A stretch of 64,000 bases of DNA from a virus: the IMG/VR virus record IMGVR_UViG_3300036670_000209, positions 1 through 64,000 of that record, one strand, 5' to 3'. Positions 38,945-61,847 of this stretch are shown one piece after another (position 1 is the stretch's first letter; each line of letters begins with the position of its first letter). A program made the position numbers and the translations under genes. The notes under the pieces were generated by a model. That model saw only the letters and a program-made list of their open reading frames with translations, was not told the DNA's origin and did not search any database.

Positions 38945-39316
38945 TTATGCCGTCAAACCCATATTTTGCAACACTTCCAGCCCCTGCAGCCAGGGTAATA
39001 GATCTGCACCGTGTGTATCATTGTTAAGTATCACCATGACCCTGGCCTGATCCAGGGTCATATCAAAATATTTGATAATATCAGGGCTGGAAAACAGGGC
39101 CATGATAGCATCCTGTGCTGCTGGAATCAGGGTACATCGCTCGGAGTTCCAGGATGCTAGCTCCTCACTATGACGTATGGGATCCTGTGCTGCCATGGTC
39201 TCAAAAAATTCTGTTTTCCACTGATGTTTTGGCAGATCCACTGTGATCTGCAGATGTTTATACAGTTTGATGGCGGTCTGTATTTCTTTGATTCTGGTGG
39301 TATATGTGTGAGTCAT
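38945..39316 (-). CDS. WSHLPNA family, highly divergent member
   Basis: C-cap remnant AQDAIMAL..YFDMTLDQ..LLPWL. Confidence 0.5.
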   Translation of the reverse strand: MTHTYTTRIKEIQTAIKLYKHLQITVDLPKHQWKTEFFETMAAQDPIRHSEELASWNSERCTLIPAAQDAIMALFSSPDIIKYFDMTLDQARVMVILNNDTHGADLLPWLQGLEVLQNMGLTA

Positions 39317-39406
39317 GTGGATTATTGTATAATACAAACACTATAACATCTGACCACCAGCACGTCAACTACACCGGTTCCCATGACCGATCGCCACAGA
39401 TAGTCA

Positions 39407-39769
39407 CTATTCTGGTATCTGGTTCACTGCCAGGTATTGTAACCAAGCCCACAGCAATAATCCCCCAGGATCCTGTTTAAGTGCAATTAACACCAGTGCC
39501 TCCCCACTGGGCATGGTCATGTAACTGGCACATGACTCATGATATACCAGTGCCCACATGGCTGCAATATTAGCTGCGTGACCGTTGGACCGCCTGGAAC
39601 ACTCACTGAATATCAGCAACTGGTCGTTTGATATTGGATGGGCCACATGGTCCCATGTCTCCATGAGTGTGACAAATACCCCGTCGCAGTTATGCGAGCT
39701 AGTTTCCACTGGAAATTGTAGGACTCGATCAATGTGTGCCGAATTGGGCAGGTGACTCCATGCTGTCAT
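39407..39769 (-). CDS. WSHLPNA family member (divergent)
   Basis: MTAWSHLPNSAHIDRV ... ALVYHE.ASYMTM..DP..LL. Confidence 0.75.
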   Translation of the reverse strand: MTAWSHLPNSAHIDRVLQFPVETSSHNCDGVFVTLMETWDHVAHPISNDQLLIFSECSRRSNGHAANIAAMWALVYHESCASYMTMPSGEALVLIALKQDPGGLLLWAWLQYLAVNQIPE

Positions 39770-39797
39770 GATGTTTCCTTGGTTGTTCATGTGACAA

Positions 39798-40283
39798 TTA
39801 TAACACCAGATCTGTGGTTATCGTCTGAATTTCTTCTAAAAAAGTCACATATGGCACCAGTAGAATCGCGGCAGGATCGTCACTCAAAGCACTCCAAATT
39901 TGCAGTTGATCTGCGGTCATGGTCAGGTAGCGGGCACAGTGATCATAGGCAATCAGAGCCAATACTGCATTCCATGCTGCATCCCGTGCTGCGGACCATA
40001 CTGCATGCTGTGCCGCCGTGAGGGTGTTACTTATCACAGGCCATGCGACATCCCATACCTGAGTCTTGGTCACGATCCAAGCAGCTATCCGTGGTGCATC
40101 AGGTATCAGGTAGTTAACTGTTCTCAGAGTCATATCCATGCGCAACGCCATGCTTTCGCTGGTCTTGTCAAGTGTTTCCCTTGCGTGTTGATAGTTGACA
40201 CCGGATGCAGAGAAGGATGATGACATATTGGCTATCACTGCATCAATATGCAGTGCATTGGGCAAGAGAATACATTCAGTCAT
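39798..40283 (-). CDS. WSHLPNA family member
   Basis: LPNALHIDAV; AARDAAWNA; full C-cap. Confidence 0.85.
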   Translation of the reverse strand: MTECILLPNALHIDAVIANMSSSFSASGVNYQHARETLDKTSESMALRMDMTLRTVNYLIPDAPRIAAWIVTKTQVWDVAWPVISNTLTAAQHAVWSAARDAAWNAVLALIAYDHCARYLTMTADQLQIWSALSDDPAAILLVPYVTFLEEIQTITTDLVL

Positions 40284-40717
40284 GATGTTTCCTTTGTTTT
40301 GATGTGCCCCAAGAAAGTCACATAGGGTAGTAATAGCACACTGGCAGGATCTGTGCTCAGTGCACCCCATATTTTCAGTTGATCTGAGGTCATGGTCAGA
40401 TATCGGTCACAGTGATCATGGGCAACTAATGCCAATATTGCATCCCATACCATGTTACTTACTCCGTCACGTGCCACATATCGTGCCACATCCTTGGCTG
40501 TATCCTTCGCTGTACCCAATGCCGCATTCCATGCCGCACTCAAAGCCACATCCCTTGCCGCATCAAATACCGCACTCAATGCCACATTTCTTGCCGCGGC
40601 CCATACCACATCCCTTGTCGCATCGCGTGCTGGCATTGGTCTAATAGGAAACAATTCCACGTAGGTCAACACCTGATCAATATGTGCCGCATTGGGCAAG
40701 TGACTCCATTCAGTCAT
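40280..40717 (-). CDS. WSHLPNA family member
   Basis: Both caps, long A-rich repeat core. Confidence 0.85.
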   Translation of the reverse strand: MTEWSHLPNAAHIDQVLTYVELFPIRPMPARDATRDVVWAAARNVALSAVFDAARDVALSAAWNAALGTAKDTAKDVARYVARDGVSNMVWDAILALVAHDHCDRYLTMTSDQLKIWGALSTDPASVLLLPYVTFLGHIKTKETS

Positions 40718-40745
40718 GATGTTTCCTTGGTTGTTCATGTGACAA

Positions 40746-41156
40746 TTATAACACCAGATCTGTGGTTATCGTCTGAATTTCTTCTAAAAAGGTCACATAG
40801 GGGACCAGTAGAATTGCTGCAGGATCATCGCTCAATGTGCCCCATACCCGCAGTTGATCAGCGGTCATGGTCAGGTAGCGGGCACATTGGTCATAGGCCA
40901 CTAATGTCAGTATGGCCTGTCTTGCTGCATTCCATTGTGACCCCCAGACCACATCTCCTGCTGAATTGCGTAGTGCTTCTTTTTTCACTGCATTCCATAT
41001 ATCATCCCTGGATCGCTCATAAATATTATCCCATACTGCATCTATTGCTGGATTTACTTTCTCTGGCAGTACACCAATTCTGTCGGGATATGCCAGTAAA
41101 GTAGCCAGCACCTGATTGATGTGCACAGCATTGGGCAAGTGACTCCATGCAGTCAT
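40746..41156 (-). CDS. WSHLPNA family member
   Basis: Both caps, mostly non-repetitive core. Confidence 0.85.
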   Translation of the reverse strand: MTAWSHLPNAVHINQVLATLLAYPDRIGVLPEKVNPAIDAVWDNIYERSRDDIWNAVKKEALRNSAGDVVWGSQWNAARQAILTLVAYDQCARYLTMTADQLRVWGTLSDDPAAILLVPYVTFLEEIQTITTDLVL

Positions 41157-41590
41157 ACCTGTTCCTTTATTGCAGCATGTTCAAATAGGGTCACATAGGG
41201 CAGTAACAGCACGGCTGCAGGATCTGCACCCAACGCACACCATACACGCAGTTGATCTGCGGTCATGGTCAGATATCGGTCACTGTGGTCATAGGCAATC
41301 AGGGCCAATATTGCATCCTGCCCACTATCCCATCGTTCCATGTCAACAGGCATATCACTTACGGTATCCCATGCTGCATCCCGCGCTGCGTTCCATGCCG
41401 TATTCTTTGCTGCATCATGGACCACATCCTGCGCCACCTCCCATGCCGCAAAGCGCGGACTCCATTCCGGCTCACCCTCTGTGCTTCTGGTACGTTGATA
41501 GGATGACCCAAATGCATATGAACATACTGCCAAGTCAGACAACACCTGATCAATATGTGCCGCATTGGGCAAATAGTTCCAATCGGTCAT
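41153..41590 (-). CDS. WSHLPNA family member
   Basis: Both caps. Confidence 0.85.
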   Translation of the reverse strand: MTDWNYLPNAAHIDQVLSDLAVCSYAFGSSYQRTRSTEGEPEWSPRFAAWEVAQDVVHDAAKNTAWNAARDAAWDTVSDMPVDMERWDSGQDAILALIAYDHSDRYLTMTADQLRVWCALGADPAAVLLLPYVTLFEHAAIKEQV

Positions 41591-42030
41591 GATATATTCC
41601 TTGTTTGGTCACAACATCCACTGATCGTCATTGCTTCAATACTTTCCAATATGGTCACATAGGAAAGTACCAAGGCGCTGGAAGGATAACCGCTTAACTC
41701 ACTCCACACTTGCAGTTCATCTGCAGTCATGGACAAATAATGACCACTATGATCGTATGCAACCAGTGCCAACGTCACATCCCACATGATCCATCTAGCT
41801 GACCATGTCCATGTGATCAACTTTGACGGCATCGCTGATTCCACTGCCACCAACACTGCATCCCATTCCTTTTCTCTTGATGCTGCTTTGACCGCACGCC
41901 ACGCAGCGTGCTGTATGTCTGTGCCGCATCCTGTGTGATGCACTGCATCAAGATGAGTGGAGAATGCCCCCACTTTAGACATTACCTGATCTATGTGCCG
42001 TGCATTGGGCAAGTGACTCCATGCAGTCAT
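41587..42030 (-). CDS. WSHLPNA family member
   Basis: Both caps. Confidence 0.85.
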   Translation of the reverse strand: MTAWSHLPNARHIDQVMSKVGAFSTHLDAVHHTGCGTDIQHAAWRAVKAASREKEWDAVLVAVESAMPSKLITWTWSARWIMWDVTLALVAYDHSGHYLSMTADELQVWSELSGYPSSALVLSYVTILESIEAMTISGCCDQTRNIS

Positions 42031-42467
42031 GCTGTTTCCTTGTTGATGTTTTCCAAGAAAGTCACATATGGAACCAACAAGATCGCTGCTGGATCTGTGC
42101 CCAGGGCGCTCCAGGCGCGTAGCTGATCTGCGGTCATGGTCAGATATCGGTCACTGTAATCATAGGCAACCAATGCCAATATCGCATCCCGCATCACTAT
42201 GTCGACGATCACCTGCCGTGGCGCATCCCATGCTGCATCCCTTGCCGCACGCCATGCCGTACGCCGTGCCGCATCCCTTGCCGCATCCCTTGCCGCATCC
42301 CACGCCACATTCTTCGCCGCACGCCATGCCGCGCCCGATGGCAGCAAAGCTTGTGCCACCTCTTGTGACACACATGCGGCTGGAATTGGTGTAATATGTA
42401 ACAACCGTATATTGGCTATCACTGCATCAATATGCAGTGCATTGGGCAGGTGACTCCATGCAGTCAT
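42027..42467 (-). CDS. WSHLPNA family member
   Basis: Both caps, AAWR/AARD repeats. Confidence 0.85.
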   Translation of the reverse strand: MTAWSHLPNALHIDAVIANIRLLHITPIPAACVSQEVAQALLPSGAAWRAAKNVAWDAARDAARDAARRTAWRAARDAAWDAPRQVIVDIVMRDAILALVAYDYSDRYLTMTADQLRAWSALGTDPAAILLVPYVTFLENINKETA

Positions 42468-42877
42468 GCCAGTTCCTTTGAGGTATTATGCTCCATGAAA
42501 GTCACATAGGGCAGTAACAGTACGGCTGCTGGATCTGTGCCCAGGGCGCTCCAGGCGCGTAGCTGATCTGCGGTCATGGTCAGATATCGGTCACTGTAAT
42601 CATAGACAACCAGTGCTAGTATCACAGACTGTGATACATCCCATGCTGCACCCCATGACGAATTCCACGCCGCATTCCACGCTGCATCTAATATTGTATC
42701 TCTTGATGCTGCTTGGGCCGCAAGCCATGCCACATCTTGCGCCACATCCTGTACCGCACGCCATGCCGTATGGCCCGCCACACTACATGCTGGCGTCGGT
42801 CTAACATGTAATAACTGTATGTTAATCAACGCCTGATCTATGTGCCGTGCATTGGGCAAGTGACTCCATGCAGTCAT
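42464..42877 (-). CDS. WSHLPNA family member
   Basis: Both caps. Confidence 0.85.
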   Translation of the reverse strand: MTAWSHLPNARHIDQALINIQLLHVRPTPACSVAGHTAWRAVQDVAQDVAWLAAQAASRDTILDAAWNAAWNSSWGAAWDVSQSVILALVVYDYSDRYLTMTADQLRAWSALGTDPAAVLLLPYVTFMEHNTSKELA

Positions 42878-43269
42878 GCCAGTTCCTTTGAGGTATTATG
42901 CTCCATGAAAGTCACATAGGACAGTAACAAGATCGCTGCAGGATCTGCGCTCAGCGCACCCCATACCTGTAGTTGGTCTGAGGTCATGGTCAAATATCGG
43001 TCACAATAATCATAGGCAACTAATGCCAATATCGCATACTGCGCCGCATCTCTCGCCGTATTCCTTGCCGCACTCCACGATGTAGTCCATGCCGCATCTA
43101 GTATTCTATCTCTCGATGCTGCGTTGGCCGCATCTCTTGCCGCATACCATGCCGCAACCACCGCCGCATCCCGCGCCACACTGTGTACTGGTGTAATGAG
43201 CAACGACCGTATATTGGCTATCACTGCATTAATATGCCGTGCATTGGGCAAGTGACTCCACGCGTTCAT
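42874..43269 (-). CDS. WSHLPNA family member
   Basis: Both caps. Confidence 0.85.
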   Translation of the reverse strand: MNAWSHLPNARHINAVIANIRSLLITPVHSVARDAAVVAAWYAARDAANAASRDRILDAAWTTSWSAARNTARDAAQYAILALVAYDYCDRYLTMTSDQLQVWGALSADPAAILLLSYVTFMEHNTSKELA

Positions 43270-43745
43270 ATGTTTTCCTGAGTAGTAGTTGTTATACCAG
43301 TTGTGTTGATCGCGTCACGTAGTTGTAACCAAGTGAGTATTGTTCTCCAGCCCATGGGTTGCGCCAGTGCCAGTATGACTCCTGCGTGCTCCAATCCCAT
43401 GAGAGAATAATCAATCAATGAATCATTGGTAACCAGCAGCATGATCATATCCAGCAACCAGCGGGCTCGCTCCAGGTCAATGTCGTGGTCCCGATCACTA
43501 TCACTTAGATAATAACCACTATCACCTAGATAATAACCCAGTGGGCCGTTCATCTGATGGTCCACTGCTTCACAGATCTGAACTTGCTGTATGGTTTTGG
43601 CATCTCTGCACTGTAGCCAATCATCATCGCACAAACACTGCACATCAATCTGAGGTAGGCTATCCCAGATGTTTGATTTGGACTGCATGAGCTGAATCAG
43701 CTCATCAATCAGCTGGGCGTTGGCCAGATGTGACCAGAATACCAT
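43266..43745 (-). CDS. WSHLPNA family, divergent array-leading member
   Basis: MVFWSHLANAQLIDELI; degenerate C-cap. Confidence 0.6.
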   Translation of the reverse strand: MVFWSHLANAQLIDELIQLMQSKSNIWDSLPQIDVQCLCDDDWLQCRDAKTIQQVQICEAVDHQMNGPLGYYLGDSGYYLSDSDRDHDIDLERARWLLDMIMLLVTNDSLIDYSLMGLEHAGVILALAQPMGWRTILTWLQLRDAINTTGITTTTQENI

Positions 43746-43839: not shown

Positions 43840-44856
43840 TCATGATATACACTGGGAAAATGCCAGGCTGGCAATATTCTTACCCTTGGCCTCGCACTGT
43901 ATGTCAAAGTCTTGTGAAAATCCTGCTGCCCAGCGATTCACCGCGTGATTCCAATAATAGTCAGAATGCGCTCGTAATTTCTGACGATTATGCCCAGTGC
44001 CCAGCAGACTGGCCAGATCTGGCCTGACCTCAGGATCATGTGCCACCAGATAGTCCTCACGAGATACCGAATAATGACACGCAGGTCTGACACCTCTCCA
44101 GCTGTCAATAACTCGCCGGACCTGATCGTCCTGGGGATCAATATATTCCCCTTCACGAATCCAATTGTGATGGATATCCATCACAATGGGCACAATGTCT
44201 GCAATTTGCAAGCAGTCACTGAGCCCCCAACTATTTTCTTCGTTTTCTATGGTAATACAATTCCTGGCCTCAGGGCTCAGCTGCTGGTATGCACGTCGGA
44301 TACCATCAGGGCCCTGTTTACCGCTGATGTGCACATTGATCTTAAAGTCTTGAAAAGTTTTGCCGTAGCCCATCCAGCGTGCCATGTCAGCATGATACTC
44401 AAACTCAGCCAGACTACGCTCCACGATACCAGGATTTTCACTGGCCAGTACCACAAACTGTCCTGGATGCATGCTCAGTCTCACATCCAGTGCTCGGGCA
44501 GCCTGCCCCACCCTGGCAAACTCCCTGGCGCAGTATTCACGAACATCGTCACGTTGCCAGAAATAACTCCAATCTCGCTGTGTATACACGGGCAGCTGAT
44601 TGCTGCCCAGCCGCACCATGCGCAGATTGTCCGGCAGGCTGCCCACATACTGCACCAGGTTCAGTGCACTGCCGGTATTATGCACCATGATGTCCCACAG
44701 TCTTTGCTCGGCATCTGCACGTGTCTGTCTGTTTAACCAGGCCACCGTGGTACATTTTTCAGTACGAGCTCGCTGAATTTCTTCCAGTAATTTCACTGGC
44801 TGTGTTTGGTCTGGATGTAAATACTTACAGCAAAATCCCACTCTACCCATGATCAA
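43840..44856 (-). CDS. uvsE: UV damage repair endonuclease
   Basis: GFCCK, RLGS, RLSMHPGQF, NVH, IENEE, DIHH, HYS, HSD, EAKGK. Confidence 0.93.
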   Translation of the reverse strand: MIMGRVGFCCKYLHPDQTQPVKLLEEIQRARTEKCTTVAWLNRQTRADAEQRLWDIMVHNTGSALNLVQYVGSLPDNLRMVRLGSNQLPVYTQRDWSYFWQRDDVREYCAREFARVGQAARALDVRLSMHPGQFVVLASENPGIVERSLAEFEYHADMARWMGYGKTFQDFKINVHISGKQGPDGIRRAYQQLSPEARNCITIENEENSWGLSDCLQIADIVPIVMDIHHNWIREGEYIDPQDDQVRRVIDSWRGVRPACHYSVSREDYLVAHDPEVRPDLASLLGTGHNRQKLRAHSDYYWNHAVNRWAAGFSQDFDIQCEAKGKNIASLAFSQCIS

Positions 44857-44911
44857 CTCCAGTAATATAATTAATAATTCGCAATGTGTACATTATACAC
44901 TATAATGCTGG

Positions 44912-45928
44912 TTAGAAACCAACCAGGTCCTGAATAATTTCATAGTGATCTTCAAAGCACTCGGCACTGTTTATTTCTGCAAAAGGTACCCAACGTGCTC
45001 GTGTGGCATCATCTGAACCTTTTACACGTGGTAAATCACCATCAGGCAACCGAATCAGTTGCACATGGGTGATGATTCTACCACGCGCACTGCGATCTAT
45101 TGCATCATATACCCGGCTGCGTACAATGCTACCACGTAACACTGGTTCAGGTACCCTGATCAGGGTTTCTTCTCTGAGTTCTCGGATAGCTGCATCCACT
45201 ACGGTGTTGTCAGTCTGTGCATTAATGTATCCGCCAGGCAGCGCCCATAACCCACGGCCCGGCTCAGCGCGTCGTTTGATCATGAGCACATGTCCGCTGC
45301 ACACCACCACTGCATCAGCAGTGCTGAATATAGGAGGATACCTGAGCCCAGCATATTGCCGATTATGATCCACGATAAATTCACGCTCCCTGATCACCTG
45401 AGAGTAGTCATCAGTGCGGGCAAAATTCTCCAACCAGTCATGCACTGGCAAGGGTACCACTCCTTTGATGAAATTATAGTTCACCTGGCGTTTGAAATAC
45501 AGGTCCCTGATGTCCACTGCGCTCAGTGGCTGTATACTTTCCACATTCTCGTATGCCCACTGTGGAAACATATCCAGATAAAAGGAACTTTCATCTTTTT
45601 TATGCCCAATCATGCCCACACGGGCACCGGAATGCGCATGTGCGGCCACCAGCTGTTGTACCCTGGTGGCCCAGGCCTGGTTATTGTACAGGCTGTCAGT
45701 GGTGGATTCCACGGAAATATTCAAGCTCAATCCGCCAGTGGCCAGGCGTATCATGTGCGCACGTTCTACAAAAGTAAATGGATTCTTGAATGTTCGGGGA
45801 AGATTTGCACTACCCACCACAATCACCAGTTTGTCACACATGGCGGTTGCTCGCTTGATGATCTCCAGGTGAGCATTGTGCAGTGGTTGGAATCTGCCAA
45901 TAAAAACCAAAACGTCATATTTGTTCAT
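44912..45928 (-). CDS. nadM: Bifunctional NMN adenylyltransferase / Nudix ADP-ribose pyrophosphatase (NadM-Nudix, NatV-like)
   Basis: GRFQPLHNAH, KNPF, GHKKDESSFYL; WALPGG...AAIRELREET Nudix box, SDDA, FEDH. Confidence 0.93.
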   Translation of the reverse strand: MNKYDVLVFIGRFQPLHNAHLEIIKRATAMCDKLVIVVGSANLPRTFKNPFTFVERAHMIRLATGGLSLNISVESTTDSLYNNQAWATRVQQLVAAHAHSGARVGMIGHKKDESSFYLDMFPQWAYENVESIQPLSAVDIRDLYFKRQVNYNFIKGVVPLPVHDWLENFARTDDYSQVIREREFIVDHNRQYAGLRYPPIFSTADAVVVCSGHVLMIKRRAEPGRGLWALPGGYINAQTDNTVVDAAIRELREETLIRVPEPVLRGSIVRSRVYDAIDRSARGRIITHVQLIRLPDGDLPRVKGSDDATRARWVPFAEINSAECFEDHYEIIQDLVGF

Positions 45929-46257
45929 TTTAGTGACTCCTTTGCCAGTTTAAACACCTTCAATGCGGTGTCAGCTGCTATACCTTCAGCCTGGCAGGCG
46001 TGAGTAAATTTCAGAGCTTTTTGCAAATACTCTCCATGAGTATGAGCAAGCCAGTCATCCTGTTTGTTTTTCATCTCATAGAACCATCCGCAACCATCCG
46101 TGTGATTATGAGTACAAAATATACTGTGCAGTGTTTTGGCCAGTTGGTAACGGGGTTCAAGTTTAGCTAATGTGAGCTGTTGCTCAAGATCGGCCAATTC
46201 TCGGGTACGTTTTTTGATTTCTTCTTCAATTTCGAAGAGTGTTAGGGCTGTTGACAT
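45925..46257 (-). CDS. Hypothetical protein co-transcribed with nadM-Nudix
   Basis: Coiled coil + LH..FCTHNHTDGCGWFYE; ATGA overlap. Confidence 0.7.
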   Translation of the reverse strand: MSTALTLFEIEEEIKKRTRELADLEQQLTLAKLEPRYQLAKTLHSIFCTHNHTDGCGWFYEMKNKQDDWLAHTHGEYLQKALKFTHACQAEGIAADTALKVFKLAKESLK

Positions 46258-46286
46258 TGAAAAATCCTTTCAATTAATATCATGTT

Positions 46287-46351
46287 GCGTTGCGTCTATC
46301 GCATTGCTTGCTGTTCCATATCAGTATAACACCAAATTATATATCTGTCAA
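46287..46351 (-). promoter_or_regulatory. sigma70 promoter and leader hairpin of the nadM-Nudix unit
   Basis: TTGACA-17-TATACT; leader CAGCAAG..TGCG-ATAGA-CGCA. Confidence 0.65.
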
Positions 46352-46378: not shown

Positions 46379-46603
46379 TTATTGGTTAACTCCAAAATGT
46401 TTCCTAATCCGTTTTGAACACTCGCTGACTATCGAGCCCCTTGAATCTGACTCGGATACTATCCAACATTGTGTTACACATTCTTCTACAATCAACTCAG
46501 CAAACTTTTTTAACTCTTGTTCGCAATCATCACCTGATTCACTGAACCAAGAATCCATGAATCCGGCCACATCAGCCAGTTGTTTTATTCGTTCATTTAT
46601 CAT
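46379..46603 (-). CDS. MNERI/FAELI/KHFG family member
   Basis: NERIKQLA..LKKFAELIVEEC..IRKHFGV. Confidence 0.75.
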   Translation of the reverse strand: MINERIKQLADVAGFMDSWFSESGDDCEQELKKFAELIVEECVTQCWIVSESDSRGSIVSECSKRIRKHFGVNQ

Positions 46604-47298: not shown

Positions 47299-47300
47299 TA

Positions 47301-47495
47301 TTAATCTCCAAAATGTTGTTTGATTTTCTTATTCACAAAGGCATAACGCTCAGTATCAATTAATCCCTCTGCCCATTGTGCCCCAACATCAGCACATTCC
47401 ATCACAATTAACTCGGCGAACTTTGCCAAGTCAATATTGTGCTGAGAATAACTGTGATGGCATTGTGCAGCAAGCTGTAAAATTCGTTCGTTCAT
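47301..47495 (-). CDS. MNERI/FAELI/KHFG family member
   Basis: MNERILQLA..LAKFAELIVMEC..IKQHFG. Confidence 0.75.
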   Translation of the reverse strand: MNERILQLAAQCHHSYSQHNIDLAKFAELIVMECADVGAQWAEGLIDTERYAFVNKKIKQHFGD

Positions 47496-47674
47496 TTATG
47501 TAACCATGTGTTATATGCAATATTCGTACCAATGAGTAGCCAAATGATAGCAAGTCCAGCCTGGCTGTGAAACAAGAAATTTAAACCAGCTGCTGTGTTT
47601 AGTGCACTGACTGTATATCCGATGGGCCTATGATTATGTGATAACCAGTCTGCAACAAAGATAATTTTATTCAT
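47492..47674 (-). CDS. Small 2-TM protein
   Basis: Hydrophobic, coupled. Confidence 0.55.
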   Translation of the reverse strand: MNKIIFVADWLSHNHRPIGYTVSALNTAAGLNFLFHSQAGLAIIWLLIGTNIAYNTWLHK

Positions 47675-48152
47675 TTTTAATTCCCAAATGTGTTGCCAGC
47701 TGCTGCTCTGGTTTGCTGATATGGTTTAATATCAGCTGTATATAATTTGCCAACAGTATTGCCGCAGGGTCATTTTTAAGCAGCCCCCAGGGCAGTAGTT
47801 GGTTGGCGTTCGCTTCCAGATAGTCAGATGCATGGTCCCATATCAGTATGGCTTGCATGGCATCCACTATGATCACACTGCTGAAGTTCACTATACTATC
47901 ATGATATGCCTGGAACTCGTTACTGAACATACGTTCCACACGTATTTGACGCAGTTGCCACCAAACTTTGTGCTGGGCGCTAGTTTCCGGCTGCTGGCGT
48001 ACCAGTGCCACCATCAACTCCCGGGCACCAGCCAACTGATGCAGATCCACTGCACCAGGATCAATGGAGGGCACCACCGGTGCATTCTGCATATGTTCCC
48101 ACATGTTTTCAAGTATTGCACTGTTGGGTTGTTGTGTAAATATTGGCTTCAT
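47667..48152 (-). CDS. WSHLPNA family, divergent solitary member
   Basis: QPNSAIL N-cap remnant; DAMQAILIWDH..YL..NQL..W..DPAAILL; TTGACA-17-TATACT upstream. Confidence 0.65.
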   Translation of the reverse strand: MKPIFTQQPNSAILENMWEHMQNAPVVPSIDPGAVDLHQLAGARELMVALVRQQPETSAQHKVWWQLRQIRVERMFSNEFQAYHDSIVNFSSVIIVDAMQAILIWDHASDYLEANANQLLPWGLLKNDPAAILLANYIQLILNHISKPEQQLATHLGIKNE

Positions 48153-48894: not shown

Positions 48895-48978
48895 TCACTG
48901 GTCAAGTGCCAAGTGGTCGATGTTATCTGGTACCTGATTCAGGTATGCAGCGTTGGTCAAGTGGTTATGATCTGTCAT
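48895..48978 (-). pseudogene. Truncated WSHLPNA family remnant (27 aa)
   Basis: MTDHNHLTNAAYLNQV...; ATGA-coupled to previous copy, early TGA. Confidence 0.55.
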
Positions 48979-49433
48979 GTTGCCTTTGTTTGTATTGATT
49001 GTGCTTGCGTCAAGTGTGCTGGTACCCCCAGGGCGTTTGCAGTTCCCATGAAAGTTACGTAGGGCAGCAATAGCACACTGGCAGGATCTGCGTTTAACTT
49101 ACTCCAAACAGCCAGGTGATCTGAGGTCATGGTCAGATATCGGTCACAGTGATCATAGGCGATCAGGGCCATTATTGCATCTCTTGCTGCATCCCTTGCT
49201 ACACTCACAGCAGCCACCTCCCAGGTTACATCACGTAGCGCATTACGCGCCGCGCGCTTTGCTGAAATCCATGCGGCATCCCGTTCCGCATTCCACAACT
49301 CACCCCAGGCCGCATTCCAAGCCGTATTCCTTGCCGCATCACACGCCGGTATTGGTCTAATAGAGAACGACTGTATGTGGGCCAATACCTGATCAATATG
49401 CGCCGCATTGGGTAAATGACTCCATGCAGTCAT
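48975..49433 (-). CDS. WSHLPNA family member
   Basis: Both caps. Confidence 0.85.
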   Translation of the reverse strand: MTAWSHLPNAAHIDQVLAHIQSFSIRPIPACDAARNTAWNAAWGELWNAERDAAWISAKRAARNALRDVTWEVAAVSVARDAARDAIMALIAYDHCDRYLTMTSDHLAVWSKLNADPASVLLLPYVTFMGTANALGVPAHLTQAQSIQTKAT

Positions 49434-51572: not shown

Positions 51573-51938
51573 TTACAGGCCCAGTAGCTGGCGTTCTTCA
51601 TCAGTGAGTTTGGCCAGCGCACCAGCTTTGAGTTTGAGTAAACGACTGGCCTCTGCTGCTTTTTGCTCCTTGTACTCCACTGCACGATCCAAGTCAAACA
51701 GATCCAGGTCTGACTTCACGCTCCATTTGGAACTGATTAGAAAAGCATCACCGCACTGATCGTCAAGATCCTCAAGGTAGAAATCCGAGCCTCTGACACT
51801 GAGCTCAATGTACACTGCACCTGCACGATCCAACACTCCCATCATGCGCATGATATAAGTGTCTCGGTCCAGCTGTTCAACCTGAGTGTGCACTGAGTCA
51901 TTGCGCTGTGCTCTTTGTGCTTGGGTCTCTTTTGTCAT
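51573..51938 (-). CDS. Hypothetical protein, KLTxEExxLLGL family
   Basis: MTKET...YIMRMM.V..RA...ALAKLTDEERQLLGL; paralogue of 62280-62648. Confidence 0.75.
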   Translation of the reverse strand: MTKETQAQRAQRNDSVHTQVEQLDRDTYIMRMMGVLDRAGAVYIELSVRGSDFYLEDLDDQCGDAFLISSKWSVKSDLDLFDLDRAVEYKEQKAAEASRLLKLKAGALAKLTDEERQLLGL

Positions 51939-52009
51939 CTTGTGCTTTCTATTGCGGCTGTTTATGTGTTGATTATAGCACAGTTGAATAACCCTGTCAA
52001 CCGGCGGGT
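51939..52009 (-). promoter_or_regulatory. Repeated early promoter/leader cassette
   Basis: TTGACA..TATAAT-CAACACATAAACAGC..AGAAAG; ACCC-N11-GGGT around -35. Confidence 0.8.
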
Positions 52010-52401: not shown

Positions 52402-52461
52402 AGTGTACTTTCTAGTCTGTTGCTGTTTATGTGTTGATTATAGCATATTTGGATAATCCTG

Positions 52462-52719
52462 TCAAACGATCAGCAATGCTTCAATGTCTGCTTCGCCGCC
52501 CTGATCAAACCGCACATACTCTTTTCCATTGTAGCCAGCAGTGACCTTGAGTCCAGGCGCACTGATCACTGTGGTATATCCTTCATCCATTAACTGGATT
52601 GTAACCTGTTCACGGCACCAGGTATCCACTGTCCAGCCAGCGCCTATGGTTTGATAATCACGTGGCTCGTGGAATTCAGGAGTTTTGACCATGTTGATCA
52701 ACATTTGGATGTTAGTCAT
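52462..52719 (-). CDS. Hypothetical protein
   Basis: Own promoter cassette at about 52720-52783. Confidence 0.7.
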   Translation of the reverse strand: MTNIQMLINMVKTPEFHEPRDYQTIGAGWTVDTWCREQVTIQLMDEGYTTVISAPGLKVTAGYNGKEYVRFDQGGEADIEALLIV

Positions 52720-52792
52720 ATCATTTGCTTTATTGCTATGTGTTAATTATAACACTTTCAGATAACCCAGTCAATCGTAGGGTCTTTAGTTC

Positions 52793-53011: not shown

Positions 53012-53083
53012 GTGTTGCTTTCTACTGTGTTGCTGTTTATGTGTTAATTATAACACGTTTTCGGGACCTGGTCAATCCAAGGG

Positions 53084-53944
53084 TTGTTCCTCGACTGCTT
53101 CAAACCATTCTGTTTTAAATGGATTGTCATTATTAGCCGATTCAGCAAATTGGTCTGCTTCAACTTCTGTGGCAAACTGAGCTACTTCATTTCTGAGTAC
53201 CTCATCATAATCTCTAACGCAATGTTTTACGATCCACATATAATTTCCCAATTCTCAAAATTTACATTCTATATTTTGGCCACACCAAATTCTTTCAACT
53301 GCACCTTTAATTCCCGTTTGTTTTACTGTATCTACGTTATTATATACAGTTGACCCAATAAAAATATAAAAGCAAACAATTCCAACAAAAATTACTGAGG
53401 CAATAATCGCTAGTACCCGAAACAATATATTAAACAAACTGAAACCTTGATCAAGTTTATTGCGATTAAATTTTTTTGTGTTAAACATTTCCCAGTGCTT
53501 TCCAGCCGTAACGACTCGCAAAAATCTCTGCATCACTGCGCAGTTGATATTCCCGAACACACTTGGTCATATAACATTCAATCTGGCGAATAGTGTCAAA
53601 CTTGAGTTCACGCACTGTGACCACATATTTTGGATATTCTTTTGTACCTGGATATATATTTGCTATAAACTTTTTCATGATATAAACTTAATAATTATTG
53701 AGACCCAGCAGCTGGCGTTCTTCAGGTGTAAGTTTGGTTTCTTTTGCCATATTGCACTTGATTAGTCAATTTTTAATTTTGCAGTCATTCTTCGCAAATT
53801 TTCTTGAGCCGTCTTGGTTATCGACTCGGACAATGATTGATTATGAAAATGTGAATGATTCTTGCGCAACAAATCATAACAACTATTGAGCCTAATTTTT
53901 GACTCAATAGATTCAATCTCTTTGTTTAAATTATCTGGTTTCAT
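53084..53944 (-). other. AT-rich run of small hypothetical genes, including a 20-aa mini-ORF at 53688-53750
   Basis: ORFs 53255-53560, 53481-53678, 53762-53944. Confidence 0.5.
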
Positions 53945-54000: not shown

Positions 54001-54354
54001 TCATAATTTCTTAACAGTGAATTCGTGTCCAAGAACATAATACTGGTCATTATCCGAGTCACACCCATAAAGAAATGTTGATGTACCAATATACAGATCT
54101 TCACCTATGCTGAATTTTCTCCAATATTCATCATCACCACAGCATGCGCGTACTGAGCAATCTTCCAGAGCAAGATTAAATAACTCATTTTCTATGCTTT
54201 TGCTTAATTCTTCTAATGCTTCACCAGAGTTGATTACGGGTTTCTTACTTAATTCATCTAACTTGCGATTCAAAACCCCAAGTTTACACGTTAGTTCAAA
54301 AATATTATATTCGAGTTCTTGTTTATTCACTGTGCATCTGCAATCATAGGACAT
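54001..54354 (-). CDS. Hypothetical protein, paralogue of 57112-57513 and 57586-57951
   Basis: C....CG.DEY..F.IG..LY.G ... HEFTV. Confidence 0.65.
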   Translation of the reverse strand: MSYDCRCTVNKQELEYNIFELTCKLGVLNRKLDELSKKPVINSGEALEELSKSIENELFNLALEDCSVRACCGDDEYWRKFSIGEDLYIGTSTFLYGCDSDNDQYYVLGHEFTVKKL

Positions 54355-54635
54355 TGTCCGGTCATGCTGGCTGAGACACTGTTTGGACAAATCCAACCAG
54401 ATTGTTTTTTAATATCAAAATGTTTTACTATATCACTATTCAACCAAGAGGCAGTTTCTTGTGTGTTGCGTCCAAGGTCAATGGATTCACCCATAGTCGC
54501 ATTTACAACATCTAAACAGTCTTTTATAATTAGCTCTGCAAAATGTTCTATTGCGGCTCTCTGAACTGGACCGGTTTTAAAGAAGTCTGCAATACGTTCA
54601 TTGCATTGTGCTATTTCTTGTATTCGTTCGTTCAT
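54327..54635 (-). CDS. MNERI/FAELI/KHF family member
   Basis: MNERIQEIA..HFAELIIKDC..IVKHF. Confidence 0.7.
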   Translation of the reverse strand: MNERIQEIAQCNERIADFFKTGPVQRAAIEHFAELIIKDCLDVVNATMGESIDLGRNTQETASWLNSDIVKHFDIKKQSGWICPNSVSASMTGQCPMIADAQ

Positions 54636-54696: not shown

Positions 54697-54903
54697 TTAT
54701 TCAACTCCAAAATGTTTCTTGATGTGCCAGCATGGGTGAATACCATCTTTGGATTCCGGCACAGTATCTGGTAACACATCAGAAACTACATCTAGACATT
54801 CCTGAATGATCAATTGGGCGAACCTTTCATACACCGTGTCGTTAGGCAGTGCGACATAATGCACACCAGCCTGTTCCAATAGGTCTCGAATTTGTTTGTT
54901 CAT
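54697..54903 (-). CDS. MNERI/FAELI/KHFG family member
   Basis: MNKQIRDL..RFAQLIIQEC..IKKHFGVE. Confidence 0.75.
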   Translation of the reverse strand: MNKQIRDLLEQAGVHYVALPNDTVYERFAQLIIQECLDVVSDVLPDTVPESKDGIHPCWHIKKHFGVE

Positions 54904-55060
54904 CAGTAGCACTCCTCAAGAATGACATTGTGACCTAGATGCTCTAACAGGTTCTTGATACCTTGTGTGCCCAGGTCTTCATCATTGTGATCCCAACTGA
55001 AAGTCTTACCATCTACCTTCACTGTCCATCCGTCACAGTGTTGCTCAATTTCAATATTTT

Positions 55061-55294
55061 TCATTCTTCAACTCCAAAATGTTTCCTGACCACAGCCACA
55101 CCTTCATCGACATCATTATAGTGCAGTACAATGTTGGTGCATTCTTTAACAATCAACTCAGCGAATTTTTCCAATCCGACACCTTTAGTATAAACAATCT
55201 TTTCAATACCTGTTGCTACTGGAATATACCAATCAGAATCATCCAGAAATTTACATCCAGCCTGTTCAGCAAGTTTTTGAATTCGCTCATTCAT
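55061..55294 (-). CDS. MNERI/FAELI/KHFG family member
   Basis: MNERIQKLA..LEKFAELIVKEC..RKHFGVEE. Confidence 0.75.
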   Translation of the reverse strand: MNERIQKLAEQAGCKFLDDSDWYIPVATGIEKIVYTKGVGLEKFAELIVKECTNIVLHYNDVDEGVAVVRKHFGVEE

Positions 55295-55369
55295 AATTTA
55301 ACTCCTATTATATTTCAGTTTATATATTAATTATAACACAATTAAACAACTGTATCAAGCCTAAAGTTT

Positions 55370-55992: not shown

Positions 55993-55994
55993 GA

Positions 55995-56258
55995 TTAAAC
56001 TCCAAAGTGTTCGTTAATATCCATCTCAGCAGTGGCCATTGCTTCATCTACATTACATTCATCATCAATGGCTTGATTCTTTCTTTTAGAGACAATACTA
56101 ACACATTCAGCCACAATCAATTGGGCGAACCGTTCAATAGATGCCATCCGAATGTCAATAGGAACTCTATACCCATCTGGTGCATTAACTGTATATAAAT
56201 GTACCATATAACCATGCAAATGACTATCTATACACATTTTTCTAATTTGTTCGTTCAT
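55995..56258 (-). CDS. MNERI/FAELI/KHFG family member
   Basis: MNEQIRK..ERFAQLIVAEC..INEHFGV. Confidence 0.75.
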   Translation of the reverse strand: MNEQIRKMCIDSHLHGYMVHLYTVNAPDGYRVPIDIRMASIERFAQLIVAECVSIVSKRKNQAIDDECNVDEAMATAEMDINEHFGV

Positions 56259-56473
56259 ACTTCAACTCCAAAGTGTTTCACAATTTTCCAATAGGGATGA
56301 GCACCTTCTTTGGATTCTGCCGCATCATCATCATCGGACACATCCTCAGACACAACATCCATACATTCTTGAATGATCAACTGGGCGAATTTTTCTAGTT
56401 TAGTGGGAATACCCTCTGGATTGTATGTTGGCAACCCAGCCTCATGAGCAAGGTCTCGAATTCGTTGGTTCAT
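56255..56473 (-). CDS. MNERI/FAELI/KHFG family member
   Basis: MNQRIRDLA..LEKFAQLIIQEC..IVKHFGVE. Confidence 0.75.
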   Translation of the reverse strand: MNQRIRDLAHEAGLPTYNPEGIPTKLEKFAQLIIQECMDVVSEDVSDDDDAAESKEGAHPYWKIVKHFGVEV

Positions 56474-56968: not shown

Positions 56969-57577
56969 GCGTTGCTTTCTGGTGTGTTGCTGTTTATGTG
57001 TTAATTATAGCATAAAACAAAAACCCAGTCAAGTTTCGGGTTATTGCGCACCAAGGTATTTCTTGATTTTGGTTACTATGAACATGTCCTGGCCCAGCGG
57101 CCAGGACGCTGTTACCTGCCAGGGCCAATGGCTCTGGTGCATGGAGTGGGCAATTCGTTGGCATCCAGAAACACCAAACTCACGTTAAATTCGTGATCGT
57201 CAATGAAGTAGTAGGTTTTATCGTGTCTGTTGTATTCAAAGCTAGCAACACCTTCATACAAGGTTTCACCCACATAAAATTGTTTTGAATATTGGGCTAG
57301 ACCACAATTGTATGAGCCTTCACAGGCTTGTTCAGCAAGTGCATACAGCTCACCGTGTATCTTAAGTGTAGCATCTTCCAAGCTTTGGAACACATTGTTC
57401 TTGGGATCCTGATTGAAATTGTTCATCTGAAAATTCCAGATCGTCAGCTCAGCTGACACGCGATCAATGTTGTCTTGGATTTCTTGCCTGGATAGTGTGA
57501 CTTTATTCATCATGCGTTGCTTTCTGGTGTGTTGCTGTTTATGTGTTAATTATAGCATAAAACAAAAACCCAGTCAA
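56965..57577 (-). repeat. 68-bp identical direct repeat (56965-57032 and 57510-57577): promoter/leader cassette flanking one gene
   Basis: TCATGCGTTGCTTTCTGGTGTGTTGCTGTTTATGTGTTAATTATAGCATAAAACAAAAACCCAGTCAA twice. Confidence 0.9.
57112..57513 (-). CDS. Hypothetical protein, tandem paralogue
   Basis: DPKNNVF..ACEGSYNCG..YSKQFYVGETLYEG. Confidence 0.75.
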   Translation of the reverse strand: MMNKVTLSRQEIQDNIDRVSAELTIWNFQMNNFNQDPKNNVFQSLEDATLKIHGELYALAEQACEGSYNCGLAQYSKQFYVGETLYEGVASFEYNRHDKTYYFIDDHEFNVSLVFLDANELPTPCTRAIGPGR

Positions 57578-57585
57578 ATTTCGGG

Positions 57586-57951
57586 TTATCCAACGCCAGA
57601 GTATTTTTTGATTTTGCCCACAGTAGTCACGGGCACCAAATTCACCGTGAATTCATGTGCAACAATATAATAATAGGTCGTCTGGTTGTATTTAAATTTT
57701 GATATGCCCTCGTACAGAGTACTGCCCACATAAAATTGCTTGGAATATTCATCCTGACCGCACCCATGAGCCCCACTGCATGCTGCTCCGGCAATTGAAT
57801 ACAACTGGTCTCCGATCAGTGCGCTGGCTATTTCCAGGGTGTCATAGACATTATTCTTGGGATTTTTTTCAAAATCCACATCATAAGTGGTACAATCCGC
57901 CAGCGCACTGCTGTCTGTACAAATGTTATTTTGAATTTTTTGTTTGCTCAT
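57586..57951 (-). CDS. Hypothetical protein, tandem paralogue
   Basis: NPKNNVY..ACSGAHGCG..YSKQFYVGSTLYEG. Confidence 0.75.
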   Translation of the reverse strand: MSKQKIQNNICTDSSALADCTTYDVDFEKNPKNNVYDTLEIASALIGDQLYSIAGAACSGAHGCGQDEYSKQFYVGSTLYEGISKFKYNQTTYYYIVAHEFTVNLVPVTTVGKIKKYSGVG

Positions 57952-58766: not shown

Positions 58767-58822
58767 GATTTCTCCAGTATATGTTGATTGTAATGCAGTG
58801 CAGTTTATAAGTCAAACCAGGT

Positions 58823-59251
58823 TCAGTGTTTTTTGTTCAGTGCAAGCTGTACACACACCATTGGGTATAGCAGGCTGCCAGCTGGGGTGGGGTTTAGTAT
58901 ATTCCATACCACCAGCTGATCAGGCGTCAGGTTCAGGTACTGCCCACAATTATCATATATAATCAGTGCCAATAGTATGCCCTGTATCGCAGCCCAGGTA
59001 TAATTATTAACCCGTATCCCATGTTTTTCCAGCATGTTCACGTGATTTTGAATTTTGACCATCATGGTGATCCAAACGTGATTACGCCGTCCATCCCAGA
59101 GTACACTGTGTGCAGCCGACCACGACACGTCCCATTCACTTCCCAGGTGGCTAAAACTCCAAACTGAGTCCCATGCCGGTGTCTCTGGGTCCAAACTGTT
59201 CAGCAGCTGGTTAATATGGGCTGCGTTGGGCAGGTGACTCCATGCTGTCAT
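58823..59251 (-). CDS. WSHLPNA family member (divergent core)
   Basis: MTAWSHLPNAAHINQLL..ILLALIIYDNC..YL.LTPDQL. Confidence 0.8.
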   Translation of the reverse strand: MTAWSHLPNAAHINQLLNSLDPETPAWDSVWSFSHLGSEWDVSWSAAHSVLWDGRRNHVWITMMVKIQNHVNMLEKHGIRVNNYTWAAIQGILLALIIYDNCGQYLNLTPDQLVVWNILNPTPAGSLLYPMVCVQLALNKKH

Positions 59252-59315
59252 GCTGTTTCCTTGGTTGCTATGCGTCAATTATAGCAGAATTCATTAACCC
59301 AGTCAACTGTGGGGG
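59252..59315 (-). promoter_or_regulatory. Consensus sigma70 promoter embedded in the 3' end of a family gene
   Basis: TTGACT-17-TATAAT, leader ..AACCAAGGAAACAGC-ATG. Confidence 0.8.
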
Positions 59316-59732
59316 CTTTACCGTTTCCAATAGAGTCACATATGGAATCAATAAGATCGCAGCGGGATCGTCGCTCAAAGCACCCCATACAGCCAGATGA
59401 TCTGCGGTCATGGTCAGATATCGGTCACTGTGATCATAGGCAACCAATGCCAATATCGCATTTAATGTCGCATCCCACAGCACGATGTCAACGGTCACCT
59501 GCTGTGACGCATCCCATGCCGGCCCCGATACCACATCTCTCACCACACCCCATGCCGCACCCAATGCCTCAGCTCTCGCTGCGACACATGCCACATCCCT
59601 GGCCACATCCCAGTAGGCCGTCGCCAGCCCAACCAAAGACTTTTTGGCATCTGATCTATCTGGAAACGATCGCAAGTGGGCCAGCACCTGATCAATGTGC
59701 CGTGCATTGGCCAAGTGACTCCATTCAGTCAT
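59268..59732 (-). CDS. WSHLPNA family member
   Basis: Both caps. Confidence 0.85.
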   Translation of the reverse strand: MTEWSHLANARHIDQVLAHLRSFPDRSDAKKSLVGLATAYWDVARDVACVAARAEALGAAWGVVRDVVSGPAWDASQQVTVDIVLWDATLNAILALVAYDHSDRYLTMTADHLAVWGALSDDPAAILLIPYVTLLETVKPPQLTGLMNSAIIDA

Positions 59733-60160
59733 GATGTTTCCTTTGAGGTGGCATTTTCCAAGAAAGTCACATAGGGCAGTAATAGGATCGCTGCGGGATC
59801 ATAGTTCAATGCACACCATACGCGCAGTTGATCTGCGGTCATGGTCAAATATTGGGCACAATGGTCATACACAACCAATGCCAATATCGCATTCAATATC
59901 GCATCCCGCATCACTATGTTGACGGTCACCTGCTGCGGCGCATCCCATGTCACATCCCATGCCGCATCCAACGCCACATCCCTGGTCTCGGTCAGCACCA
60001 GTGCGCCGTACACCTCACACCGCGCCGCGCGCGATGCTGCATCTTGTGCCACCTCTTGTGACACACATGCGGCTGGTATTGGTCTAATAGAGAACGATCT
60101 TATGTTGGTCAATACCCAATCTATATGTGCTGCATTGGGCAGGTGACTCCATGCAGTCAT
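59729..60160 (-). CDS. WSHLPNA family member
   Basis: Both caps; mosaic core. Confidence 0.85.
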   Translation of the reverse strand: MTAWSHLPNAAHIDWVLTNIRSFSIRPIPAACVSQEVAQDAASRAARCEVYGALVLTETRDVALDAAWDVTWDAPQQVTVNIVMRDAILNAILALVVYDHCAQYLTMTADQLRVWCALNYDPAAILLLPYVTFLENATSKETS

Positions 60161-60558
60161 ACTGGTTCCTTGTTTGTGGAGTGTTCCAAGAAAGTCACGT
60201 AGGGCAGCAATAGAATTGCCGCTGGGTCGTTGCTCAATGCACCCCATACCCGCAGTTGATCAGCGGTCATTGAAAGACAAGGGGCACAGTGATCGTAAAC
60301 AATCAGGGCCAGCAGTGCATCCCGCCACGTGCTATTAGCGGTACATGATGATGTGTATAATGTGGCGTCCCATATCAGGTGTCTTTTTGTATCCAATATT
60401 GCCCTCCTTGCTGAAACTCTGGCTGCGTCCGTTGCCTCTTGTCTTTCTGCACTCCAGCGCGTATTGCTGGACTCATGGTGAGTACTGGGATATGCTGTTA
60501 GGTTGGATCGCACCAAGTCAATATGTGCTGCATTGGGCAAGTGATTCCATCTATTCAT
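60157..60558 (-). CDS. WSHLPNA family member
   Basis: MNRWNHLPNAAHID; C-cap. Confidence 0.85.
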   Translation of the reverse strand: MNRWNHLPNAAHIDLVRSNLTAYPSTHHESSNTRWSAERQEATDAARVSARRAILDTKRHLIWDATLYTSSCTANSTWRDALLALIVYDHCAPCLSMTADQLRVWGALSNDPAAILLLPYVTFLEHSTNKEPV

Positions 60559-61048
60559 ATGTGTCTCTTGGTTGTTCATGTGTTGATTGCAACATCGGAT
60601 CAATTGGCTGTGTCTTGATGTTTTCTAATAAAGACACATAGGGCAGTAACAGCACACATGCTGGATCATCACTCAAGGCACTCCACACTCGTAGTTGATC
60701 TGCGGTCATGGTCAAATATCGGACACTGTGGTCATAGGCAATCAGTGCCAATATTGCATCCTGTACACTGTCCCATACACTATCCCAAATCGCCCTGCGT
60801 GCATCATAACGAGTCATTGTGGCACGAGAGACCAATTGGCACTGGGCGATTACCGCTGCTCTTGCACCATGCCGCAATGCGTCCCGTACTGCTTGCTGAG
60901 CCACTGACCATGCTGACTCCCGTGCCAACCAATTCCACTCCTGTTGCTTTGAAAAGAGTGGCGGGATAGATGCAATAGTAAACGATCGCAAGTAGGATAT
61001 CACCTGATCTATATGTGCCGCATTGGGCAAGTGATCCCATGCCGTCAT
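60551..61048 (-). CDS. WSHLPNA family member
   Basis: Both caps. Confidence 0.85.
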   Translation of the reverse strand: MTAWDHLPNAAHIDQVISYLRSFTIASIPPLFSKQQEWNWLARESAWSVAQQAVRDALRHGARAAVIAQCQLVSRATMTRYDARRAIWDSVWDSVQDAILALIAYDHSVRYLTMTADQLRVWSALSDDPACVLLLPYVSLLENIKTQPIDPMLQSTHEQPRDTYE

Positions 61049-61500
61049 GCCAGTCGCCCGGGGGTAGCATGTTCCAAGAAAGTCACATAGGGCAGTAACA
61101 GCACACCGGCTGAATCATCACTTAGGGCAGCCCACACTTGAAGTTCATCTGCGGTTACGGTCATGTATCGGTCACTGTGGTCATAGGCAATCAGGGCCAT
61201 TATTGCACCCACGGCTGCTCTCCAAGCTTCTCTTGGCGTATCTCTTGCCACATCCCGTGCCACATCCAATGCCGCATCCAATGCTATAATCCTTCCCATG
61301 GACCATATCGTATTAAATGCTGTATTAAATGCTGTATTCAATGCTGTATTCAATTCCGCAAGCTCTAAAAGTACAGCTGGCGCAACCACCTGTTTTTTGC
61401 CATGCACGGGTGACATAATGAATTCAGAGCAACACAACGGTATACCGGTCAGCACCTGGTCAATGTGTGTAGCGTTGGGCAAGTGACTCCATTCCGTCAT
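61045..61500 (-). CDS. WSHLPNA family member
   Basis: Both caps; NTAL/NTAF 4-residue repeats. Confidence 0.85.
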   Translation of the reverse strand: MTEWSHLPNATHIDQVLTGIPLCCSEFIMSPVHGKKQVVAPAVLLELAELNTALNTAFNTAFNTIWSMGRIIALDAALDVARDVARDTPREAWRAAVGAIMALIAYDHSDRYMTVTADELQVWAALSDDSAGVLLLPYVTFLEHATPGRLA

Positions 61501-61847
61501 ATTGATGTTGCCCCTATCATTGGCCCGTACGATTTTAGCCAGGGCAGCAGCAGGCGCCCGGCTGCGCAGTCGCTTAGCTCAATTATGATGGTTGCGCGGT
61601 CAATGGTCATGGAGTGGTATTTCTGACAGGTCGGGTCCATGATCAGTGCAACCAGTGCACACTGAATGATCACATTCTTTTCAATGTTGGGCACTGTGTC
61701 CCACATGCTGTTGAATCGTTTTTGCTGCGGCCAATCAAGTTCATCACGAGCATCCAGATACACGTGGTATGTGTCTGAGCAATACCATCGTGAATTGCAT
61801 GTGTTGCTTGACATTATCACTTGTTCTATGAGTTCTTGATTGTTCAC
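61497..61847 (-). CDS. WSHLPNA family, highly divergent array-leading member
   Basis: ALVALIMD.TC.KY.SMT.D...AAG.LLLPWL C-cap remnant. Confidence 0.5.
   Translation of the reverse strand: MNNQELIEQVIMSSNTCNSRWYCSDTYHVYLDARDELDWPQQKRFNSMWDTVPNIEKNVIIQCALVALIMDPTCQKYHSMTIDRATIIIELSDCAAGRLLLPWLKSYGPMIGATSI

Follow-up and report, generated by a model that had tools for sequence, protein, structure and literature searches.

The first 64 kb (the window) of the 103-kb viral record IMGVR_UViG_3300036670_000209 from IMG/VR carries a family of 25 paralogous genes, all on the minus strand, together with a remnant of 27 codons. The products, referred to here as the helical-repeat family, are small, cytoplasmic, all-helical proteins of 116-165 amino acids (aa), and their genes are laid out as three arrays of 11, 6 and 7 members plus one solitary copy. 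The record has a CheckV completeness of 29%, implying a genome of about 350 kb, and its family-B DNA polymerase is nearest to those of Sinorhizobium phage Phosso (48%), Agrobacterium phage Atu_ph07 (44%) and the Eneladusvirus group. When one copy was compared with the whole record by tblastn, 25 places were found (E values from 5e-93 to 2e-3), all of them on the minus strand and within the window, and none (0/25) contained an internal stop. Gene starts were reset to the ATG of the conserved N-terminal cap (N-cap). With these refined starts, the initial annotation of the region, which had described about 25 genes in three arrays with a solitary copy and a remnant, nearly all in intact frames, was confirmed.

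Array 1 (38945-43745, 11 genes, from tblastn and refined starts) begins directly after uvdE with a divergent gene of 159 aa (43266-43745) that is 23% identical to a typical copy. Eight canonical copies follow as a block (39798-43269) with ATGA overlaps at seven junctions (42874-43269, 42464-42877, 42027-42467, 41587-42030, 41153-41590, 40746-41156, 40280-40717 and 39798-40283), and the array closes with two divergent copies (39407-39769 and 38945-39316; 26-29% identity) in which the C-terminal cap (C-cap) is still recognisable. The six canonical copies of array 2 form a block at 48975-51546 with a tandem period of 410-434 bp and an ATGA overlap at every junction (51121-51546, 50711-51124, 50277-50714, 49867-50280, 49430-49870 and 48975-49433); the stop of the last one is overlapped by the remnant, an open reading frame of 27 codons with only an N-cap-like start (48895-48978). 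Array 3 (58823-61847) holds seven copies, at 61497-61847 (divergent), 61045-61500, 60551-61048, 60157-60558, 59729-60160, 59268-59732 and 58823-59251, the last of which is divergent and has its own promoter (59306-59278). The solitary copy (47667-48152) is also divergent, matches the C-cap with an E value of 7e-9 and has a promoter of its own at 48206-48178. All these genes and promoters lie on the minus strand.

Within the arrays, 17 of the 22 junctions are four-base ATGA overlaps, and AAGGAA, a ribosome-binding site, stands upstream of most starts, in agreement with the translational joining that had been described before. That the copies with the greatest divergence (22-38% identical to a typical one) stand at array ends holds for arrays 1 and 3 and fails for array 2, the ends of which are canonical.

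The proteins consist of two constant caps and a variable core. At the N-terminus the motif W-x-x-L-P-N-A-x-x-I-D is nearly invariant, and at the C-terminus a module of about 55 residues is conserved; both agree in the alignment with the cap motifs of the initial annotation. Between the caps lie three helices built of four-residue units, x-A-[W/R]-[D/N]. The corresponding 12-bp periodicity was detected in nearly every copy by Tandem Repeats Finder and by a repeat search (repeat family D1), the repeats being only 60-75% identical at the DNA level. At the protein level, autocorrelation gave a period of four for Ala and Trp, with co-occurrence at lags 4, 8 and 12 at 2.0-4.2 times the frequency-based expectation. 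These three analyses uphold the earlier description of a core made of 12-bp units. In the window copies and in metagenomic relatives alike, W or R predominates at the third position of the unit and D or N at the fourth. An alignment of 248 members from outside the window showed that the paired Ala positions are conserved at 60-79% and that the two positions between them are variable. What is kept in the core is the Ala-Ala pair, while the other two positions of the unit, the number of units and the linker vary. In canonical copies the core is 57-84 residues long and, as had been proposed, its length changes in frame by four-residue units; in array 2 the lengths differ by multiples of four (63, 67, 71; 64, 72). 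In the same alignment N9, D14 and D101 are conserved at 94-99%, His6 is present in 79% and His12 in 82% of the members (replaced by L, Y, N or D), and the strongest conservation of the whole family falls on the first 14 residues.

Two copies with different cores were modelled with AlphaFold from deep alignments. The models had a predicted local distance difference test (pLDDT) score of 86.8 and 88.7, a predicted template modelling score of 0.84 in both cases and an identical set of eight helices, which bears out the notion of one helical scaffold. The N-terminus lies inside the predicted fold (pLDDT 94-96). Foldseek found no significant counterpart of the models in PDB or BFVD, a pdb_via search contributed nothing further, and sequence-profile searches of PDB gave no hit to any chain. 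On the basis of these models, the fold is possibly new.

Selection was analysed among the 19 canonical copies. The N-cap had a median synonymous divergence (dS) of 0.83 and a ratio of non-synonymous to synonymous divergence (dN/dS) of 0.24, and the C-cap had values of 1.01 and 0.17, so that synonymous divergence is near saturation in both caps. In the closest pairs, the ratio of the uncorrected proportions (pN/pS) was 0.60-0.75 in the core; in the C-cap it was 0.26-0.44 in seven of the eight closest pairs. The caps are under purifying selection and the core is less constrained, which answers the question put by the initial annotation about caps versus core. Since synonymous divergence is saturated, the frames are intact and the dN/dS of the caps is low, each copy must have been maintained for long as a working gene; the copies are old and individually maintained, and are neither recent duplicates nor junk. 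An assembly artefact, a doubt raised earlier, is improbable, also because the copies average only 58-74% DNA identity (maximum 91%, in the C-cap) and because independent viral contigs carry the same kind of array.

Mean DNA identity among canonical copies is 58% over the first 120 nucleotides and 74% over the C-cap. The nearest paralogue of a copy by its first 120 nucleotides usually differs from the nearest one by its C-cap and is often located in another array, and the N-terminal and C-cap identities correlate only at 0.15 (171 pairs). One such pair, the copies that end at 43269 and at 51546, is 91% identical over the C-cap and 61% over the N-terminal part. By such sequence comparisons, the copies are mosaics that exchange segments by recombination. 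Tandem duplication has multiplied the genes into operons with translational coupling, and whole operons have been duplicated as well, since both array 2 and array 3 have a consensus promoter and a paralogous gene of 121 or 122 aa at their head. Two contigs with flanks that are 99-100% identical (L008, 8482-10221, and L011, 9279-10171) carry four and two copies of the family, respectively, which reflects either a real polymorphism or an assembly collapse.

Scans of the window copies and their metagenomic relatives against Pfam, NCBIfam and PADLOC found nothing meaningful, and no ankyrin, TPR, HEAT, leucine-rich repeat (LRR) or other Pfam repeat was matched in either set. Such repeats have units of 24-40 residues, whereas the period of the present family is four. 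Together with the profile searches of PDB, these results agree with the earlier statement that no characterised family could be recognised. Several candidates were rejected. PHROG 8332, a family of unknown function, matches the repeat core only (profile positions of about 130-226 out of 248), and the match is largely compositional, since the antisense strand scores too. A hit to P0241, a protein of 2936 aa, was a spurious repeat hit. Imm5_like (PF21805) and Imm5 (PF14423), which we take to be small Ala/Arg/Trp-rich helical proteins, gave no hidden Markov model match in the 103-kb record at E≤10, and none of 112 family members matched them at E≤1. Viral Imm5_like clusters are among the nearest named ones by language-model features (0.79-0.83), but these scores fall in the range that is also reached by shuffled proteins. 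Imm5_like and Imm5 are putative immunity proteins, many of them found in phages (Pfam).

Relatives are abundant in metagenomes. Among the candidates scored there were 816 hits. Grouped at 50% identity, the relatives with E≤1e-3 make up at least 690 clusters, 375 of them with E≤1e-10. These relatives are nearly all 100-200 aa long, and no fused or longer form was found among them. Clusters of the family in the ESM Atlas are 87-96% viral, and no relative turned up when 185,579 prokaryote species genomes were scanned twice. Among GenBank phages, megablast with the region and tblastn with three different members gave no match, and the family profile found nothing in Phosso, Atu_ph07, Vibrio phage 2.275.O, fHe-Yen9-04, 121Q or G. 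By these searches the family is restricted to viruses. In IMG/VR, at least 75 further loci were found with 1-9 tandem copies within 12 kb. A contig of 77,705 bp (L048, L070, L075, L095, L096; 20% complete) gave 29 profile matches in several clusters and is an independent expansion of the same size, and a viral fragment of 31 kb gave 13. Hence, the expansion in the window is extreme but not unique. With high confidence, these proteins can be described as a phage-specific family, abundant and uncharacterised, whose small helical members have constant caps and a variable middle part made of units.

Eleven matches to the sigma-70 promoter were found between 38 and 64 kb, all on the coding strand, each with at least 11/12 bases and a 17-bp spacer; the expectation for the two strands combined is about 0.83. 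On the minus strand, matches of 12/12 lie upstream of array 3 (62711-62683) and array 2 (52000-51972), and a further sigma-70 promoter (46351-46323) lies upstream of the block of NMNAT, UvdE and array 1; the promoters of the solitary copy (48206) and of the last gene of array 3 (59306) also belong to the eleven. No terminator-like sites were found between these promoters and the arrays. Behind the two 12/12 promoters, array 2 is headed by a gene of 121 aa (51573-51938, minus strand) and the array 3 operon by one of 122 aa (62280-62648, minus strand). The two are paralogues (38% identity, E 5e-23) and match no known family, apart from a weak match to PHROG 5370 at the C-terminal end only. The upstream part of the presumed array 1 operon (43840-46351, minus strand) consists of the promoter, a gene of 110 aa, a bifunctional NMNAT-Nudix gene (44912-45928, minus strand) and the gene of a UvdE UV endonuclease (43840-44856, minus strand), the last lying between the NMNAT gene and array 1. 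A NAMPT gene is found at 30431-31912, 13 kb from NMNAT-Nudix; NAMPT and NMNAT-Nudix form the NARP2 pair for the reconstitution of NAD+ (bioRxiv 10.1101/2024.02.11.579819). Directly downstream of array 1 is a macro-domain gene (38391-38894, minus strand; phrog_335 2e-38, DarG model 3e-6, Pfam Macro 1e-3), the product of which is a candidate counter-defence enzyme that removes ADP-ribose. As near-consensus sigma-70 promoters head the operons, early transcription by the host RNA polymerase is a reasonable inference. The initial annotation had placed the family among early genes beside NAD counter-defence functions; the eleven promoters and the NAMPT, NMNAT-Nudix and macro-domain neighbours speak for this, and the early timing itself is only plausible.

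Several other features were observed in the same region. A minus-strand promoter cassette, composed of TTGAC(A/T), a 17-bp spacer with TG, TATAAT, a conserved leader of about 35 nucleotides and ATG, occurs in eight copies (51957-52009, 52422-52474, 52731-52783, 53032-53084, 55315-55367, 56989-57041, 57534-57586 and 59263-59315) and resembles a mobile module that carries an early promoter. Proteins of 64-87 aa form a second multi-copy family, encoded at 46379-46603, 47301-47495, 54697-54912, 55061-55294, 55995-56258, 56255-56473 and 62017-62241; most members share a central F-A-x-L-I-V-x-E-C and a C-terminal K-H-F-G-V, and that at 62017-62241 has the central motif only. This second family is abundant around helical-repeat genes in related viral contigs, and in related phages the helical-repeat family lies among the same small multi-copy genes as in the window. 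Three further paralogues of 121-133 aa (54001-54396, 57112-57513 and 57586-57951) have a Y-S-K-Q-F-Y-V-G...L-Y-E-G block in common and gave no family match. The gene at 62743-63159 codes for a protein of 138 aa with a lipoprotein-type signal peptide and a match to Pfam Phage_VG64 (5e-51); the label of the corresponding PHROG 478 is recombination directionality factor. Further away, a two-ring AAA+ ATPase of the Clp/Hsp100 type with a Clp_N domain is encoded at 12097-14376 and a TctA subunit of a tricarboxylate transporter at 20663-22123.

The reading that we favour, at a probability of roughly 45%, is that the 25 paralogues are a diversified set of protein binders or inhibitors aimed at host proteins. 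According to this reading, the host RNA polymerase would transcribe the operons early from the consensus sigma-70 promoters. The stripe of Ala residues would pack the helices against each other, and the W/R and D/N positions would be exposed to the solvent as a binding surface that varies. The helices could then grow or shrink in steps of 12 bp, by slippage or unequal exchange, while the fold is preserved. Each of the 25 paralogues might neutralise or redirect a different host protein, defence factors being the likeliest targets, and the constant caps may do no more than stabilise the fold, or may dock onto a partner shared by all members. A stable scaffold, a variable surface, many retained paralogues and block exchange are what an arms race with the host would be expected to produce, and the unstable copy number, the probable early expression and the anti-defence neighbours fit such a race too.

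A number of points weigh against this proposal. The exposure of the W/R and D/N positions was deduced from the periodicity of the sequence and not from coordinates, and binding, host targets and expression are all inferred. No homologue with a known function and no fusion to an informative domain was found. The pN/pS of the core is below one, so relaxed constraint explains the core as well as diversifying selection does. Finally, the conservation of the first 14 residues could place the function in the constant part, as a tag or a site. A more ambitious version, which we consider doubtful, is that the family is a combinatorial binder library with a new fold. One scaffold would carry a surface made of four-residue units, diversified by 12-bp slippage and block exchange and deployed early against many defence proteins, with the caps docking on a common effector such as the Clp-type ATPase of the phage, as a viral counterpart of the capped variable-repeat receptors of immune systems.

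The main rival locates the function in the invariant caps, which would act as a site or a tag, and it is kept alive by the conservation of the first 14 residues. In its specific form, which is rather unlikely, the cap residues (N9, D14 and D101, with H6 and H12 in about 80%) would constitute an enzymatic or ligand-binding site and the core would tune specificity or stability; a nuclease-like activity related to the fold of the PT1 toxin, or a pocket that sequesters a nucleotide signal, would be examples. The 94-99% conservation of the three residues among the 248 members and the adjoining genes for NAD salvage and the macro domain are in its favour. So is an exhaustive VIA-align search of PDB, in which 8ows_A was the best chain for both models and nearly the whole chain was covered. 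For model 1 the match had a Z of 5.4 and a root-mean-square deviation (rmsd) of 3.6 with 110 residues aligned, and did not stand out (against 4.8); for model 2 it had a Z of 7.9 and an rmsd of 3.0 with 104/122 residues, the next row being 4.3. The PT1 DNase domain has 119 aa (Table S9 of bioRxiv 10.1101/2021.10.19.465003), and the length of 8ows_A agrees with it. From length alone, which leaves the assignment unconfirmed, chain A of 8OWS should be this toxin domain rather than the immunity protein. However, the sequence identity is 8%, the Z values lie below the level that the tool regards as meaningful for helical proteins, and the profile searches, as said, hit no PDB chain. PT1 has the conserved catalytic histidines H44 and H48. 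His6 and His12 of the present family are each replaced in about a fifth of the members, which is at odds with a His-dependent nuclease. The family is not in a toxin-immunity locus either, and 25 nucleases without interleaved immunity genes would be odd. The likeness to 8OWS is thus a lead only.

Genome filler, or the remnant of a genomic accordion, is the next alternative, and quite an improbable one. It regards the genes as products of tandem duplication which occupy spare capsid capacity and have little function per copy. The jumbo phages G and 121Q have tandem arrays with over 30 similar genes, which have been interpreted as the product of expansion through duplication (Hua et al. 2017, PMC5646251), an account repeated in a review (PMC13282480); these arrays, the differing copy number of the near-identical contigs and the truncated remnant in the window would suit it. 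Against it stand the 25 frames that are all intact despite near-saturated dS, the dN/dS of 0.17-0.24 in the caps, the retained ribosome-binding sites and translational coupling, and the persistence of the family in hundreds of diverged viral lineages. The arrays of G and 121Q resemble the present ones in that a single small gene has been expanded in tandem on a large scale, in phages with genomes of about 350-500 kb, but they belong to another protein family: the helical-repeat profile found nothing in KM507819 or JN638751 at E≤0.1, and the same method does find members in other viral records. Unlike them, the helical-repeat copies have diverged deeply, are mosaics and are distributed over three operons.

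It is very unlikely that the proteins are virion-associated or injected ones, in which the invariant 14 N-terminal residues are a targeting or processing signal and the variable body is a payload delivered with the DNA. The internal proteins of T4, which are encoded at a polymorphic locus, bear a capsid-targeting sequence and include the anti-restriction protein IPI*, provide a precedent, and the extreme N-terminus is indeed the most conserved part of the family. However, AlphaFold places this N-terminus inside the fold with high confidence, the C-cap is conserved as well, and the promoters are of the host sigma-70 type and not of a late type. Repeats that act as DNA or RNA, serving as binding sites for proteins or as hotspots of recombination, with the reading frames secondary, would account for about 11 kb of dense 12-bp periodic DNA, but are highly unlikely on present data, since third codon positions have diverged while amino acids are kept, the frames are intact, the folds are confidently predicted and the DNA repeats are only 60-75% identical. 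A diversity-generating retroelement would have a pair of template and variable repeats, whereas the variation seen here is spread over many paralogues; no RVT_1 match was found in the record, which represents about 29% of the genome.

Tandem expansion as a phenomenon is already known; the family and its architecture of four-residue units are new. The proposed binder set can be likened to variable lymphocyte receptors, which are made of capped LRRs, in its constant caps, variable number of units and exchange of blocks between copies. The comparison is an analogy only, since those receptors are LRR solenoids with somatic diversity, whereas the phage proteins are all-alpha and vary in the germline across paralogues. 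The ankyrin/F-box proteins of poxviruses also join a helical-repeat part that varies to a terminal module that is constant, and occur as many paralogues. With these repeat families of large eukaryotic DNA viruses the likeness is by function only, as paralogues in accessory regions whose copy number changes quickly under host pressure; the ankyrin unit of poxviruses and giant viruses is a helix-turn-helix of 33 residues, in contrast to a four-residue unit within helices, and no Pfam match to ankyrin or F-box was found in the present family. Gene amplification has been discussed as an adaptive route of large viruses under the term genomic accordions (PMC13359090).

Even without a function, the family merits a database entry, being abundant, virus-specific, confidently folded and without a match to any known domain. 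If the paralogues bind different host factors, they would be among the largest anti-host repertoires known in one phage, and the at least 690 clusters now without annotation would supply many new anti-defence candidates. The proteins would also provide a natural scaffold that is compact, at about 140 aa, and whose variable positions form a simple code that can be read. In that case large phages would adapt in the manner of large eukaryotic viruses, through the amplification and shuffling of a single family of binders.

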